DNA from: Ignavibacteriota bacterium
GTDB lineage: Bacteria > Bacteroidota > Ignavibacteria > UBA10030 > CAVZMI01
Reading direction: 5' to 3'
Assembly: GCA_963776275.1 (NCBI GenBank)
Contig: CAVZMI010000004.1
Span: 1 to 21,217, forward strand
DNA: 21,217 bases
Below, piece by piece: positions 1-4,779 of the stretch (the first letter of the stretch is position 1; each line of letters opens with the position of its first letter). The notes under the pieces are model-generated. The model was not told the DNA's origin and ran no database searches. It saw only the letters and a program-made list of their open reading frames with translations. The position numbers and the translations under genes were made by a program.

Positions 1-340
1 CCGAATGAGCCCGCCAAAAGATGAAGCACGGCGGGCAGGCGTGGTACGTTAAGCATGGCTTGTGAAGGGTTTTAGTTTTTATTAATATGTTCTTTGTACT
101 TCATAACTTTAGTATTAATTAATTTCGTTATCAGTATGAATCAGTTTCGGGTATTACATTTTGAAAGTTTTCACCTGCCTGCCGAAGTGCCTTCGGCACG
201 TAGGCAGGGTGCGGCAGCTCCCGCTTCAGCGGGATCCTCGATTCGACCACAATTTGTTTGGAAAACAACAAATTTGTCGAATCGGGATTATTTATCCGCC
301 GGAGTGTTATTTACGTAGGCGGAGCCGCCATCCGTTAGGC
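1..340 (+). repeat. attC site 1 (long family; left end outside window; carries palindromic inserts)
   Basis: Ends GCCGCCATCCGTTAGGC (core 334-340). Bases 1-59 nearly match 1111-1169 and bases 210-339 nearly match 3114-3270. Inserts at 10-39, 174-208 and 220-323. Confidence 0.8.
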
Positions 341-367
341 GGCTTCGCAAAGCCAAAGGATGGTACT

Positions 368-1039
368 ATGAGACATGTCATTGAATTATTTTTCAGGGTT
401 GCCCTTTTAGCGTTTATCTGGTTTATCTGGTGGTGGGTGTTAAACGCACCACTTTCAAATGTTATGAATCTATCTATCATTGTGGGAGGGGTATTGTTGA
501 CATTTCCTCTTGCTTGGCTCGGCAGGAAGATACTAGACCGACACCAAACAATAGGCCACGCCGTCTGGACAACGACATTTGTACATTTTGGTCTGGGTTT
601 TACATTTGGTGTTCCTATCGTTCGGGCAGTATCCACTTATCAAGATTGGTCTGGCTGGGTACTCCCAATACCATCTGAAATCGGCTTGGTTCTGGTCATT
701 ATTACTGGGGCAGCTTTTTTGCTGATAGTGGTAAACCTTGCCTTGAAAGGATTCGGTGCGCCCTTTTTCATTGCGCTCAGCGGAAATTGGCGGCAGATTG
801 GTTGTATGCCTGGACGCGTAATCCTATGGCGCTTGCAGGTCTGGCTTTTTTCCTGTCATTAGGCATCTGGTTTCAGTCAGCGCTGTTTGTGCTCTGGGTA
901 CTCATCGTGTTTGCACCGGCATATGTTTTCTTTGTGAAAGTGTTATGAAGAACGAGAGCTGGAGATTCGATTTGGAGCATCCTACCTGGAATACAAATCC
1001 AGAACGCCTATGTTTTTCCCAAGAAAACCAAGAGGTTAA
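368..1039 (+). CDS. Cassette 1: isoprenylcysteine carboxylmethyltransferase/PEMT-like membrane protein (two compensating frameshifts near 780 and 930-943)
   Basis: ATG at 368 after AAGGA; several hydrophobic helices. The shifted frame from 781 reads LYAWTRNPM, and the original frame resumes with YEERELEIRFGASYLEYKSRTPMFFP (family motifs RNPM and EE..L..RFG..Y..Y) to TAA at 1037-1039. Confidence 0.8.
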
Positions 1040-1049
1040 ACGATGTACC

Positions 1050-1357
1050 GCCCAACCAGCGGTTCCCCGCAAACAACACGGGGTTTCACACAAAACGTTC
1101 AACAAGCTGACCGGATGAGCCCGCCAAAAGATGAAGCACGGCGGGCAGGCGTGGTACGTTAAGCATGGCGCGTAGAGGTTTTATGAAACTTGAAAGTAAA
1201 TTACATGGAACCCGCCTTTGGCGAGGCTCGCCTTCGGCGGCTCGGTTCGTGCAGTGGTACATTTTAAGTTATCGGTGCCGCAGTCCGATCCCGCTTATGC
1301 GGGATCGAGATCTCGTCCCGACTTAGTCGGGACGGACTTAGCACCCATCCGTTAGGC
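1050..1357 (+). repeat. attC site 2 (long family, 308 bp, four palindromic inserts)
   Basis: GCCCAAC (1050-1056) ... CTTAGCACCCATCCGTTAGGC (core 1351-1357). Inserts at 1065-1102, 1120-1149, 1211-1240 and 1284-1336, defined by alignment with 2985-3272. Confidence 0.8.
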
Positions 1358-1386
1358 GGCAAAAACAATCAAGGAAGGAGCAGGTC

Positions 1387-2010
1387 ATGAAACGATTATA
1401 TGGTCTCTTTGTTTTATTTATCGTTCTTGTCTCATGTACCCAAAACGCCCCTAAAGTACTTCTCTTCGTACGGGATGGATCTCCACATTTAGAGTACATG
1501 CTCAATAAAGAAGTCGGTACCATGAAAGAATTACTCGAACAATCCGGTTTCGAAGTTACGATTGCGACAATATCCGGTGGAGTTTTAAAAACGGATTCGA
1601 TATCTGTAATGCCTAATATTAAGTTATGCAATGTAAATATTGCTGATTATGCGGGATTCATTTTACCATGCATGGCCAGCGATTCCACACATTCAGAAAC
1701 AGTATCTTTTATCAAAGAAGTGGTAAAACAAGGGAAACCCATAGCGGCTCAGTTCGGTTCAGTAGTGACTCTGGCCCGAGCAGGCGTTCTTCAGGGTAAG
1801 AAATTTGCCTTTCCTGAAGAGAAAGACATAAATGCGAATATGTATCCAGAGTTTAATGGTAGCATTTATAGTGGGAAAGGTGTTATTCAAGATGGGCTCA
1901 TTATTACCTCTGGAATCTGTCCCTGGATGGCGAAAATGCCGGGTTATCAGGATGGTACTGATGAACTTACTCGAGCATTAATCAATACGATAAAGGCAAC
2001 AACTAAATAG
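1387..2010 (+). CDS. Cassette 2: DJ-1/PfpI-family protein with lipoprotein signal peptide
   Basis: AGGAG RBS; MKR plus hydrophobic stretch plus LVSC lipobox; fold motifs GFEVTIAT, DYAGFILP, GKPIAAQ.GS..LARAGVLQGKK and VIQDGLIITSG. Confidence 0.8.
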   Translation: MKRLYGLFVLFIVLVSCTQNAPKVLLFVRDGSPHLEYMLNKEVGTMKELLEQSGFEVTIATISGGVLKTDSISVMPNIKLCNVNIADYAGFILPCMASDSTHSETVSFIKEVVKQGKPIAAQFGSVVTLARAGVLQGKKFAFPEEKDINANMYPEFNGSIYSGKGVIQDGLIITSGICPWMAKMPGYQDGTDELTRALINTIKATTK

Positions 2011-2073
2011 AAACAATTAATGTTTAATTCAGTTGACAAATATTTATTTACATCATTACTGATGTTTATTTAT

Positions 2074-2196
2074 GCCTAACACCCGCATCAAGGTGGACGC
2101 GACCCAACCTCGCGATTTTTAAAGTTGACAATACGCAGCCAAGAAAGTAACAGAATTTAACTTTGTGGGTCGCGCTACTTATGCTTATCGTTAGCC
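2074..2196 (+). repeat. attC site 3 (canonical, 123 bp)
   Basis: R'' GCCTAAC (2074-2080) and R' GTTAGCC (2190-2196). L'' GCATCAAG pairs with L' CTTATGC leaving one extrahelical base. Inner inverted arms GCGACCCA / TGGGTCGC. Confidence 0.9.
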
Positions 2197-2206
2197 CGCA
2201 GAAGGA

Positions 2207-3007
2207 ATGTTGACTGCAATGGATCAACAAGGAGCAAATAATCTATTAAAGCAATCATTTGATATCTGGTTCCGACCAGAAATCGAACGTCGAAAATCCG
2301 CAGGAGTACTTCCCACTGGTTTTTCAGTATGGGCTGCTCAAGTTATTATGGATTTAGATATCGAATCTCCAATTATCAGATTAAATGAAGAAGTTCATGG
2401 TATATTCAAAATGAAGGCGACTAAACCTGTCACAGCAGGAGAAATTGTTGATCTAAATGATTTTTCTAGCATTGAAGGAATGACTCTTGGCGATGAGTTT
2501 CCAAATGCTGGCCATTTGACTACAATGTTACATAAGAATATTTGGTACATAATTTTCGATTTCCAGTATAATGCAGGTCGAATTCAAACACAATTGTCAT
2601 CGGCTGATCAATTTTTAAAGGCATCACAATATTGCGTCGAGGCCAACATATCGATTCCAGCTATAGACAATTTGTATGATGCGGTTCAATTGATGGCTAA
2701 ATGTTTTTTACTAAGAGTTCCTGATAAAAATGTTCTTGAATCATCTAGCCATGGTTTTATAGAAACAAATTTTAATTTACAGGGTAGATATAAAAATGTT
2801 TCCGCGACTTCAGTTGATTTGCTAAATCGGCTCGCTCAACTTCGGCCAAAGACCCGATATGCTGCGGAGCCAATTCAGGTTTCTCAATCAGAACTTAAGC
2901 GGCTTTTTGATCTTGCACAAAAAATGAGAGACGAAATAGAAGTTGCAAGACCTAAAAGAGAAAAACCGTTAAAGCCTTCTGCCCGCCTAACCAGCGGCTC
3001 AAGCTGA
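2207..3007 (+). CDS. Cassette 3: protein with uncharacterised N-terminal region and C-terminal HEPN-like domain (start may be ATG 2219)
   Basis: 266-aa ORF. The C-terminal half has the HEPN pattern A...LY.A...AK..LL....SHG....F.....L..L..LR...RY. The stop codon lies inside the next attC. Confidence 0.65.
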   Translation: MLTAMDQQGANNLLKQSFDIWFRPEIERRKSAGVLPTGFSVWAAQVIMDLDIESPIIRLNEEVHGIFKMKATKPVTAGEIVDLNDFSSIEGMTLGDEFPNAGHLTTMLHKNIWYIIFDFQYNAGRIQTQLSSADQFLKASQYCVEANISIPAIDNLYDAVQLMAKCFLLRVPDKNVLESSSHGFIETNFNLQGRYKNVSATSVDLLNRLAQLRPKTRYAAEPIQVSQSELKRLFDLAQKMRDEIEVARPKREKPLKPSARLTSGSS

Positions 3008-3272
3008 CCGGATGAGCGCACTGCAAAATTCATGGTTTGCAACGGTCTGGTGGTAATTTGAAAGACATCTATTTGAAACTTGGTTCGTTTAGTACTATTT
3101 TGAAAATTATCAATGCGGCAGCTCCCGCTTTGCGGGATCCTCGATTCGACCACAATTTGATTGGACAACATCAAATTTGTCGAATCGTGATTATTTATCC
3201 GCCGGCTTGTCCGCCGGAGTGAAACGAAGGCGGAAGTGTTATTTACGTAGGCGGAGCCGCCATCTGTTAGCT
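2985..3272 (+). repeat. attC site 4 (long family, 288 bp, composite palindromic insert in L')
   Basis: GCCTAAC CAGCGGCTCAAGCTGACCG ... CGGCAGCT[insert 3124-3255]GCCGCCATCTGTTAGCT. The left arm pairs with the reconstructed right arm CGGCAGCTTAGCCGC with two unpaired bases. Confidence 0.85.
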
Positions 3273-3316
3273 GGCACAAAAAAGAGGGAACAATTATCAC
3301 AAAAAAGGAGCATCTT

Positions 3317-3895
3317 ATGCCAAAGAATATTTCTGCTCTTATATTTACTGCATTCGCGACGCTGTTCATCACGTTTGCTTCTGCGCAGGAGAAAAAACCG
3401 GCCGAACCTCCCAAGCCTGCGATGAATTCTTATCAGGAGTTGATGTATTGGTGGAATGATATCGGAGGAAGGGTAATCGCAATGGCGGAGGATTTTCCCG
3501 AAGACAAATATAACTTCAAAGCCCAGAAGGATGAGAGAACGTTCGGCGATAATCTCCTGCACGTTGCAGCAACTTACTATGTAATGATCAATCTCATCAA
3601 AGGGTCAGCGGTGGGATACACCGGGGACTACGATTCCTTGTGGAAAAAGTATCCGACAAAAACAGACATCGTGAAATACTTGAAGCAGTCGGTCGCCGAC
3701 GGCTTTGATCTAATCAAAGCACAAGGGGACAGCGGATTGACGCACGAGGTTAAATACCCATGGGCCAATCAGATGGTTCACGCTTCGTTTTGCTGGTGGA
3801 CCATTCTTTGGCATGCTGGCGATCATTACGGACAATTGGCGGTGTATTACCGTCTCAATGGAATGATACCGCCTGCATCTCGGCCGAGAAAATAA
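3317..3895 (+). CDS. Cassette 4: DinB-family protein with signal peptide
   Basis: AGGAG RBS; signal peptide ending ASA-Q; motifs PEDKYNFK....RTFG..LLHVA and H..DHYGQL.VYYRLNG..PP (DinB His triad). Confidence 0.85.
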   Translation: MPKNISALIFTAFATLFITFASAQEKKPAEPPKPAMNSYQELMYWWNDIGGRVIAMAEDFPEDKYNFKAQKDERTFGDNLLHVAATYYVMINLIKGSAVGYTGDYDSLWKKYPTKTDIVKYLKQSVADGFDLIKAQGDSGLTHEVKYPWANQMVHASFCWWTILWHAGDHYGQLAVYYRLNGMIPPASRPRK

Positions 3896-3914
3896 CAAGA
3901 AGTTTCATAGTGCC

Positions 3915-3976
3915 AGCTAACCAGCAGCTCAAGCTGACCGAATGAGCCCGCCACAAAGACGGCGGGCAGGCCCGCC
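3915..3976 (+). repeat. attC site 5, left half only (truncated)
   Basis: AGCTAAC CAGCAGCTCAAGCTGACCGAATGAG matches the left arms at 2985 and 1050, followed by a hairpin insert at 3947-3970. No L'/GTTAG right arm follows. Confidence 0.75.
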
Positions 3977-3978
3977 TT

Positions 3979-4779
3979 TTACGTCTCGGTTGGAGTTTTA
4001 TCCCAGCGATTCTTCGGCGCGTAACCGCAGAGCCAGTTGAATGTGTGATGACGTTCGAATGAAACGCAGCGTATGTTTGTCCATTCTTTGTCCGTCAGAT
4101 CGCGGTATGCTTTTTCAAAAGCCGGGAAATCGCCCTCGATGAGGGGTGGAAGTCGGCCCTCTTCAAAGTGTTTTGCAGCGGTGAACCTTACAACTTCATC
4201 CATTGTTGCAAAACGGGATTTCTTCGGCGGTATGACTCCCTGTTCTTCAAGCTCACGCGTCCGGCTGCGCCAGTGCCATAATTCCGCCGTGTCCCTCGCC
4301 TCATCGATTTCAGCTTCCTTTCGAAGCTTCGCCTGTTTGATCAATTGTAGTATGTGATCATGGTCGGGAGGAATTTTGACGATGATTTTTGGATCGGTTT
4401 CGGAATCATAGGGTGGAAGTTCCGAAATCATGCCCAATGCCCACATAAGACATACGGCAGCTTCAACCTTCCAGCCTGCATCGTAATAAATCTCCTGGTC
4501 AAGTTCATATGCCGACGTGGAGATAAATTGTTGCTCGCTCTGAGTCATTACATCCCACAGACCTGATACGCGGAGTGCTGCACAGAGAGAATTTCGCCTC
4601 TCATCCCATTCATGTATCGATTTTTTTCTGTCTGCATCGCTGGATTCCTGCAGTTGTTCCGCAAGATATGATGGTGGCGGATTGAGCACCGCATGAGCTA
4701 CCTGAGAACGTAAAATAATAAGTCGTTGAGCCGCTTCTTGAGCCGTCGGTCGTAAATTCTTTTTATTTCTAAATGCCAT
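3979..4779 (-). CDS. DUF4272-family protein
   Basis: 266 aa with motifs W..EA...LMWALG, LR...EI, LWHWR.R and ERH..FNWL, recognised from this family. Confidence 0.75.
   Translation of the reverse strand: MAFRNKKNLRPTAQEAAQRLIILRSQVAHAVLNPPPSYLAEQLQESSDADRKKSIHEWDERRNSLCAALRVSGLWDVMTQSEQQFISTSAYELDQEIYYDAGWKVEAAVCLMWALGMISELPPYDSETDPKIIVKIPPDHDHILQLIKQAKLRKEAEIDEARDTAELWHWRSRTRELEEQGVIPPKKSRFATMDEVVRFTAAKHFEEGRLPPLIEGDFPAFEKAYRDLTDKEWTNIRCVSFERHHTFNWLCGYAPKNRWDKTPTET

Follow-up and report, generated by a model that had tools for sequence, protein, structure and literature searches.

The recombination sites of integron cassettes, attC sites, are given a length of 56/57-141 bp in a section of PMC5371416, which adds that non-recombinogenic folds can be promoted by variable terminal structures of large size. 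Integrons are on record in Ignavibacteriae, as stated in a passage of PMC9024848. Repetitive extragenic palindromic sequences (REPs), the REP-associated tyrosine transposases (RAYTs) and REPs nested in other palindromes are already known as well, as described in parts of PMC8266576 and PMC3733652. In this work, we analyzed a stretch of 21,217 nt (hereafter, the window) from an Ignavibacteriota bacterium (assembly GCA_963776275.1, contig CAVZMI010000004.1, positions 1 to 21,217), the first 3995 bp of which are the distal end of an integron cassette array in a metagenome-assembled genome (MAG). The attC sites of this array reach two to three times the normal length, because small hairpin-forming repeats are inserted in them. 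Our reading, to which we give a probability of about 70%, is that these sites are mosaics built by insertion of REP-like palindromes and by modules specific to attCs, with the causes and the consequence proposed below.

The genome under study is referred to as G000; the contig labels used here (C4, C6, C8, C23, C30, etc.) are those of its contigs, and the window is the start of C4. The relatives used for comparison were G001 (same genus), G002 (same family) and G005 (another family of the same order). All features of the window described below, apart from one reverse-strand neighbor, lie on the plus strand. The first site, attC1 (1..340), has its 5' end cut by the contig start, shows the backbone of the family described below and ends with the 3' arm AGCCGCCATCCGTTAGGC and the R' box GTTAGGC (334-340). 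The second, attC2 (1050..1357), spans 308 bp from R'' GCCCAAC to R' GTTAGGC and has degenerate L arms, and attC4 (2985..3272) spans 288 bp from GCCTAAC to GTTAGCT. The 123-bp attC3 (2074..2196; GCCTAAC/GTTAGCC) belongs to a different attC family and carries no inserts and no GC-rich hairpins. Of attC5 (3915..3993), only the 5' arm and a hairpin similar to the F_H palindrome introduced below (3946-3971) are present; since its 3' arm is missing, the array ends or is truncated there, and the G005 orthologue of the preceding cassette has kept a complete attC (locus L032). Complementary R''/R' ends of the RYYYAAC/GTTRRRY type were found in attC2, attC3, and attC4, the last three bases of R' being expected to vary after recombination. 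The full-length attCs of the family range from ~130 to ~410 bp, the longest ones being located on C30, and their clean backbone takes ~158-190 bp; the described length range is thus exceeded by the sites of 288 and 308 bp in the window and by the ~410-bp site on C30. All attCs were defined by hand from intergenic regions, because the automatic scans failed or were unspecific: the scan for RYYYAAC/GTTRRRY palindromes with arm alignment was unspecific or empty and missed the interrupted sites, regular expressions anchored on the arms gave too many chance matches, and blastn-short with a clean attC returned 9 loci only.

A natural, uninterrupted attC of 158 bp was found in G005 (L031, reverse complement, 1066-1223), directly upstream of the orthologue of cassette 1. 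In the global alignment with this site, attC2 shows 82% backbone identity and four inserts, i.e., 1065-1102 (38 nt), 1124-1152 (29 nt), 1210-1240 (31 nt), and 1284-1336 (53 nt), while attC4 shows 89% identity and a single block of 130 nt (3124-3253). An earlier note, made from the sequence of this DNA alone, had proposed inserts of 38, 30, 30, and 53 bp in attC2 and of 130 bp in attC4, and its coordinates and sizes agree with ours to within 1 nt. The alignment of 17 attCs from C4, C30, C23, and C6 gave the family backbone, which reads R''-GCGGCT, position A, (C)AAGCTGACCGGATGAGC, position B, GTGGTACGTTAAGCATGGC, an AT-rich part, ATGAA, position C, CTTGGTTCGTTTAGTACATTTTGAAAGTTATCA, position D, GTGCCGCAGCT, position E, and TAGCCGCCATCCGTTAGGC. 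Positions A-E are five recurrent insertion points at which hairpins of varying content are either present or absent. Two sites of the family are uninterrupted in G000 itself (C23:148815-149007 and C23:297711-297900), and a third one (C23:334888-335075) comes close, its only deviation being a short degenerate stretch at B. Position A coincides with the extrahelical base that is C in the top strand and G in the bottom one, and position E lies directly opposite to it.

When the bottom strand of the clean G005 site is folded under constraints, its stem, CGG(T)CAGCTT(G)AGCCGC, has the single-base bulges T and G six pairs apart. Without interruption, the arms GCGGCT(C)AAGCTG(A)CCG and CGGCAGCTTAGCCGC pair into a perfect stem with the canonical bulges. 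The same arms are found in attC4 if the 130-nt block is disregarded. The proposal that removal of the inserts restores arms with extrahelical bases therefore stands for attC4 and for the clean site, but not for attC2, whose own L arms (GCGGTTC/AGCACCC) pair poorly and whose minimum-energy fold lacks the R/L stem. For the AT-rich clean sites, minimum-energy folding without constraints gave no useful information.

In attC1, the F_H palindrome (GCCCGCC..GGCGGGCAGGC; 9..40) occupies position B right after GAATGAGC, a position that is empty in C23:148815-149007, and the 35-nt F_D palindrome (CCTGCC..GTAGGCAGG; 174..208) occupies position D, which is empty in the other attCs of the family. They are followed by the E1 module at position E (220..288), placed between GCAGCT and the L' arm and composed of a small CCCGC..GCGGG hairpin and a long ATTCGAC..GTCGAAT hairpin, and by the REP-like E2 hairpin (TCCGCC GGAGTGTTATTTACGTA GGCGG; 295..322) directly 5' of AGCCGCC. 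In attC2, the 38-nt insert (1065..1102), a CCCCG..CGGGG hairpin with a tail, is located at position A, i.e., at the extrahelical C of L'', and recurs at the same position in C23:336799-336857 and C6:152371-152419. A second copy of F_H (1119..1150) is present at position B, and 55 nt around it are identical to attC1. Position C holds the hairpin CCCGCC TTTGGCGAGGCTCGCC TTC GGCGG (1210..1240), which is absent from the same point of the G002 sequence (L036) and is represented at this position by a longer relative in C30:3502-3913, and position E holds a two-hairpin module named E1' (GATCCCGC..GCGGGATC, GAGATCTC, GTCCCGAC..GTCGGGAC; 1284..1336). In attC4, another E1 module (3124..3191) at position E is followed by E2 (3198..3254), which is split by the 30-nt REP F_R1 (3205..3234) nested in its loop. 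The nested element is missing from C30:4573/4575, and an identical 34-nt copy of it is present at C8:3331-3364. As previously claimed, the inserts are short hairpins with no coding capacity and are real insertions relative to their empty homologues. Separately, at C23:336797-337785 the 5' and 3' arms of an attC are 813 bp apart, with a 270-aa open reading frame (ORF) without a Pfam match between them, which may represent an attC insertion of larger size.

To detect sites that are filled in one copy and empty in another, the arrays of G000, G001, G002, G005, and further genomes were searched automatically for two ungapped matches that adjoin each other in one sequence but are separated by 15-150 nt in the other. 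This revealed 15 distinct events with conserved flanks across four genomes, and thus the empty-site homologues that had been expected do exist. The insert at 1215-1240 is missing from G002 (L036), where the two flanks match over 34 nt (97% identity) and 61 nt (93%), and the one at 3205-3234 is missing from C30:4573, where they match over 128 nt (95%) and 34 nt (88%). Conversely, G001 is filled where the window is empty, by 33 nt at 3021, 34 nt at 3140, and 37 nt at 297. The orthologue of attC4 in G001 (L029:11597-11980) is 100% identical in its core over 122 nt, yet it differs by three indels of REP hairpins, the flanks of which are 94-100% identical. Position 3140 of the window is empty in most genomes and filled only in G001 and in one site on C30. 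At the junctions of the modules, the same boundary recurs to the single base. Exactly the two inserts of the G001 type are also present in contigs of a peat metagenome (run X1); this is not independent support, since X1 may be the source of G001 itself. The metagenome contigs that were compared come from relatives and not from the strain of the window, and the parts which they leave uncovered are uninformative. In contigs of two freshwater-sediment runs (X3 and X4), window position 3121 is joined, via 15 other letters, to sequence matching the E1' hairpin of attC2 from 1299 on; if this join is real, position E has alternative modules on one backbone in other populations.

The density of GC-rich hairpins (stem of at least 6 bp with at least 5 G/C, loop of 3-30) was compared between attCs, other intergenic DNA, and ORFs of G000. 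The attCs contain 62 such hairpins in 5,896 bp (10.5/kb), compared with 547 in 464,907 bp of other intergenic DNA (1.18/kb) and 1,726 in 3,227,890 bp of ORFs (0.53/kb), so the equal density which the earlier note had named as evidence against an accumulation in attCs was not found. For stems of at least 7 bp, the respective values are 2.71, 0.34, and 0.08 per kb, and hairpins of the TCCGCC..GGCGGA type occur at 1.70/kb in attCs versus 0.084/kb elsewhere. At least one copy of the F_R1, F_D, or F_H families is present in 8 of 27 attCs, compared with 34 loci (holding the 38 other copies of these families) among the 1745 remaining intergenic regions with a length of 60 bp or more, i.e., a ~15-fold difference. 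In the window, attC1-attC5 contain 7, 3, 0, 3, and 2 GC-rich hairpins of at least 6 bp in the stem, and the four ORF regions of the cassettes 0, 0, 0, and 2; the observation that the cassette ORFs are free of inserts is thus nearly correct. The hairpins had been regarded as a single class that accumulates in attCs; the pile-up in these sites is confirmed, and the class falls into two kinds, one composed of REPs found throughout the genome and the other nearly confined to attCs.

The first kind is represented by F_R1, F_D, and F_H, whose copies were counted in G000 with blastn-short. F_R1 (window 3205-3234 and flanks) has 32 copies, five in attCs and 27 outside, F_D has 11 (five in attCs), and F_H has seven (two in attCs and five elsewhere). 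All three families consist of short imperfect palindromes with many extragenic copies, in both orientations and clustered, as is expected for REPs. Clusters of nested modules were also found in ordinary intergenic DNA, at C7:32190-32340, C8:3280-3520, and C20:91425-91570. Copies of F_D with 86-94% identity are present in six other genomes of the order, and copies of the genome-wide palindromes with 86-97% identity in many of its other families. Nine matches to Y1_Tnp were detected in G000, and two genes exceed the NCBIfam cut-off of 80 bits for RAYT (NF047646), i.e., C12:68567-69103 (117.7 bits) and C38:31286-31921 (83.8 bits). The former has R1-like REPs within ~330 bp on both sides, an arrangement typical of a RAYT flanked by its REPs. 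The REP families are most likely moved by the RAYTs or IS200-type Y1 transposases of this genome. Apart from these families, G000 carries a CRISPR array of ~120 repeats (13-mers of GTTTCAATTCCACTTTGGTCCGATTCAAAC occur 119-125 times) and other short repeat families, e.g., GAGCTTGTCGAAGG and CGAATCTCTTTGCCGGGAC. Moreover, within C23:127500-151000, an intergenic unit of ~110-130 nt (GGCAGCTC..GTTAGGGCTGCCGTTTGATTATTAG .. CATCCGACAACCAGCGTTGTA ..) recurs between genes, as does a 'GGTTCCATCA(C/T)TTTAATCCATACATC' unit.

The second kind comprises E1, E1', E2, and F_B. E1, which among the parts of the finding is the likeliest to be new, is a unit of ~68 nt in which the small CCCGC..GCGGG hairpin precedes the long one. 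The ATTCGAC/GTCGAAT stem of the latter is invariant, its internal loop (CAC/T) is asymmetric, and its distal stem varies. All seven copies in G000 are located in attCs, five at position E and two at position A, in one orientation. Among 201 genomes sampled from the order, the E1 pattern was found in 12 (the reversed control in 0), and 23 of its 25 matches are located at one of these two positions in an attC, while two are chance matches in coding sequences. In the alignment of 20 distinct copies, 93.3% of the cells are paired and 10 of the 21 pairs have changed on both sides (34 cells); none of 500 shuffles reached the observed values, and slid controls gave at most 51% paired cells. A scan with the exact pattern through one genome per species (185,579 species) yielded five records only, all of the Ignavibacteriota type. 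The Rfam scan of window positions 1-4100 gave only a chance miRNA-like match on the E1 hairpin (20 bits versus a gathering score of 55). It should be stressed that, with E1 at position A, or opposite to it at E, the bulge of the extrahelical G becomes a three- or four-way junction. In a short attC of G005 (L059/L063), the site consists of R''-L'', E1, and L'-R' only. E2 and F_B are REP-like in sequence and nearly confined to attCs. E2 has 14 copies, 12 of them in listed attCs, and the other two (C25:34065 and C23:336250, the latter in a cassette array) lie in sites unconfirmed as attCs; six of the eight copies of F_B are in attCs. E1' has six copies, four in attCs, and it occurs at position E in G005 (L032) too, while its second hairpin recurs in eight other genomes of the order. 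E1, E2, and F_B hold fixed positions that are conserved across genera, and they could be inherited parts of the attC lineage rather than recent colonists.

Taken together, these data suggest the following scenario. Short, GC-rich, genome-wide REP-like palindromes have been inserted recently and repeatedly, at several positions of the backbone and inside one another, and they would be moved by RAYT or IS200-type Y1 transposases acting on single-stranded hairpin DNA. Older modules specific to attCs, E1 above all, are placed at the junction of the extrahelical G and travel with the attC lineage across genera. The attCs may attract and keep such elements as hairpin-prone, non-coding DNA that tolerates side arms, and selection for clean sites may be weak, with no integrase detected in the assembly. 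The recombinogenic fold would become less probable, so that cassettes would be excised less often and be more fixed in place. In the constrained ensemble of the attC4 bottom strand, the predicted probability that both the R and L boxes are paired rises from 0.068 in the native site to 0.61 (~9-fold) when the 130-nt block is removed, and the inserts may, as judged by such models, slow or block the shuffling of cassettes. For attC4 stripped of the nested F_R1 alone, the predicted probability of the recombinogenic fold is 0.016, which indicates that the effect of the inserts on the fold is not monotonic.

Several observations weigh against this scenario. The fixed positions of E1, E2, and F_B, together with A-type and E-type sub-lineages extending across families, fit inheritance as well as insertion. 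The mobilizing transposase is a putative one; the C12 RAYT gene is flanked by R1-like REPs in direct and not in inverted orientation, and the GTAG tag of F_D (CACGTAGGCAGG) and E2 (ACGTAGGCGG) is located inside the hairpin, next to the 3' arm of the stem, unlike the outside position in classical REPs, while F_R1 has GAAGGCGG instead. At the 15 junctions, neither a target-site duplication nor a common target motif was found, the overlap of the flanks ranging from -6 to +3 nt. The list of attCs used for the densities was hand-picked from sites already examined, and, because paralogous attCs share inserts by descent, the counts in attCs do not represent independent events. In intergenic DNA, exact 12-mers with five or more occurrences outside the arrays take up 4.0% in the C4 array and 3.5% in that of C30, versus 3.0% elsewhere, and pooled over all held-out array regions their coverage is 1.4%, i.e., below the background. 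The GAGCTTGTCGAA family, one of the most abundant in the genome, has none of its 40 copies in attCs. With the commonest repeats not enriched, the excess in attCs is specific to certain families. No match to the integron integrase model TIGR02249 above the cut-off was found in G000 or G001, and for this reason the accumulation of inserts could be a neutral decay of dead sites. Finally, no public sequencing run contained half of the words of the window (the best value being 0.24), and its own array was found in no run.

Among other explanations, we consider it unlikely that the long, branched form with E1 and the E2/B hairpins is the original one, and that the clean sites of 158-190 bp arose by slippage deletions across hairpins. 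Such an origin would agree with the confinement of E1 to attCs in a fixed position and orientation in families f1, f4, f5, f8, and f9, where it appears to be under structural selection, with the short G005 attC, in which E1 can be the whole apical structure, and with the branched variable terminal structures known for VCR (Vibrio cholerae repeat) sites, as given in excerpts of PMC2727003 and PMC5371416. The uninterrupted arms, however, give the perfect canonical stem with its bulges, as an original state should, and F_R1, F_D, and F_H are located mostly outside attCs, the identical 34-nt copy on C8 included. At window 3140, moreover, it is the empty version that most genomes show, and only G001 and one C30 site are filled.

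Quite unlikely, in our opinion, is also a neutral spread of REPs, in which repeats land anywhere in non-coding DNA and a loaded attC is then copied many times with its cassettes. The inserts shared at the same position, such as E2 in its 12 listed attCs or the 55 identical nucleotides around F_H in attC1 and attC2, would be expected from such copying, and the unenriched commonest k-mers and the hand-picked list of attCs point in the same direction. Against it, the genome-wide families occupy varied positions (B, D, inside E1, and inside E2) within and between attCs, inserts are present in one and absent from another copy with a 100% identical backbone, and the comparison of 8/27 attCs with 34 loci in 1745 regions counts sites and not copies. 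That the long attCs are chimeric repeat joins in a MAG (a 38-contig assembly with 5.3% contamination, in which both C4 and C30 begin inside an attC and the array of the window is matched by no public run) is very improbable, since the same modules occupy the same positions in several independently assembled genomes, including the six-contig G002 and other families, with junctions identical to the base.

A bolder and rather doubtful proposal is that E1 and its twin at position A form a new attC architecture, in which a multi-way junction takes the place of the extrahelical-G bulge of the L box and bears a dedicated hairpin of conserved structure, read by the integrase or a partner protein, that RAYT transposition prefers folded, single-stranded attCs, and that the arrays act as nurseries of REPs whose load sets the excision rate. 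If true, two systems that act on hairpins of single-stranded DNA would be mechanistically connected, and E1, should it prove to be a protein-binding arm, would count as a new accessory element in integron recombination. Sites that are alike except for being filled or empty provide a natural experiment on the effects of side arms on recombination, including those at the junction of the extrahelical base read by the integrase, and hairpin-prone recombination sites would constitute a class of REP targets in which polymorphic insertions can be tracked over time. The default length cap for attCs in IntegronFinder is 200 bp. Sites of 290-410 bp would be missed or split under such a cap, and consequently arrays in Ignavibacteriota, and perhaps elsewhere, are probably under-counted.

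The assembly of G000, a peat-bog organism with hairpin-stuffed attCs, comprises 3.70 Mb. The region 1-3995 of the window holds four tandem ORFs, each followed by a site of the RYYYAAC..GTT type with a variable tail. The coding region of cassette 1 (368..1046) has no Pfam match and appears frameshifted in relation to its relatives: within 368-1118, the ORF has a stop at 862 and then continues in other frames (787-948 and 945-1118), while in G001 and G005 the orthologue is one uninterrupted ORF (223-228 aa). Metagenome contigs from 4 of 4 runs have one base fewer at 942/943 than the window, which, together with the intact orthologues, suggests a frameshifted copy here or an assembly error. Cassette 2 (1387..2010) encodes a DJ-1/PfpI family protein and cassette 4 (3317..3895) a DinB family protein, both according to Pfam, and cassette 3 (2207..3007) has a weak HEPN-like match below the Pfam cut-off. 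Cassette 2 recurs with attC3 at C30:422-1281 (96%) and in G001 (97%), with three different upstream attCs in all, and the shared sequence starts around the G/TT of R', the matches beginning up to ~12 nt upstream of it, where the 3' arms resemble each other. These are genuine cassettes: their ORFs stand in tandem on the same strand and they move as units cut at G/TT. Beyond the array, the stop codon of a reverse-strand DUF4272 gene (3979-4779) directly abuts attC5.

Regarding integrases in the relatives, G002 encodes an IntI with 484 bits (TIGR02249 cut-off 265), and a fragment of IntI is present in G005 on the same contig as its attC array, ~3 kb away. The region beside the G002 intI gene contains no attC of the studied family; ~840 bp next to this gene (C5 of G002; L074, reverse complement, 1162-2004) are a long run of ~30-nt units ending with CATTTC or CATTGC. 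The two tyrosine recombinases of G000 that come closest to TIGR02249, nearly identical to each other and of ~311 aa (C23:235648-236583 and C22:9512-10336), were not counted as integron integrases, because their matches skip positions 181-234 of the TIGR02249 model. Palindromes of ~115-135 bp that resemble attCs lie near both recombinase genes (C23:228-234.7 kb and C22:12.8-14.3 kb). Two genes of DEDD transposases of the IS110 family were identified (C7:21361-21801 and C23:223068-223499), and the one on C23 adjoins a palindromic site (C23:222831-222929), ~5 kb from the palindrome cluster on the side of the C23 recombinase. No similarity was detected between the inserts and these two IS110-family loci of G000.

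In a full-text literature search, we found no description of REPs or other short palindromes inside attC sites. Two classes of elements could be rejected as the identity of the inserts, i.e., miniature inverted-repeat transposable elements, due to the lack of a consistent target-site duplication at the 15 junctions, and IS1111-attC elements or group IIC-attC introns, as the inserts are of 17-130 nt and contain no ORF. In the small dispersed nested repeats of cyanobacteria, very short palindromic units insert into each other; these belong to another phylum, and we know of no link between them and integrons. IS1111-attC elements and group IIC-attC introns are mobile elements that resemble the present inserts in lodging in attCs with a fixed orientation, as E1 has both a fixed position and a fixed orientation; they differ in exceeding 1 kb and encoding a DEDD transposase or a reverse transcriptase, whereas the individual inserts described here are of 17-70 nt and non-coding. 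The REPs and mosaic elements that form REPtrons with RAYTs are similar in being imperfect, GC-rich palindromes of 20-40 nt, extragenic and clustered, with tens of copies in both orientations. RAYT genes are present in this genome too, with R1-like REPs beside one of them, and REPs inserted in other palindromes are reported in a passage of PMC3733652. In contrast to these systems, a large share of the copies is located here within integron recombination sites, the copy number is modest, the GTAG tag is inside the hairpin and not at its outer end, and the REPs flanking the RAYT gene are direct. The branched variable terminal structures of the VCR type share with the attCs of this family the extra stem-loops beyond the L box, as shown in the parts of PMC2727003 and PMC5371416 devoted to them. 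They differ in length, with the quoted 56/57-141 bp versus ~410 bp here, and in the placement of the arms, which in the attCs of this family are found not at the tip alone but also at the junction of the extrahelical G within the L region, some of them being polymorphic mobile repeats.

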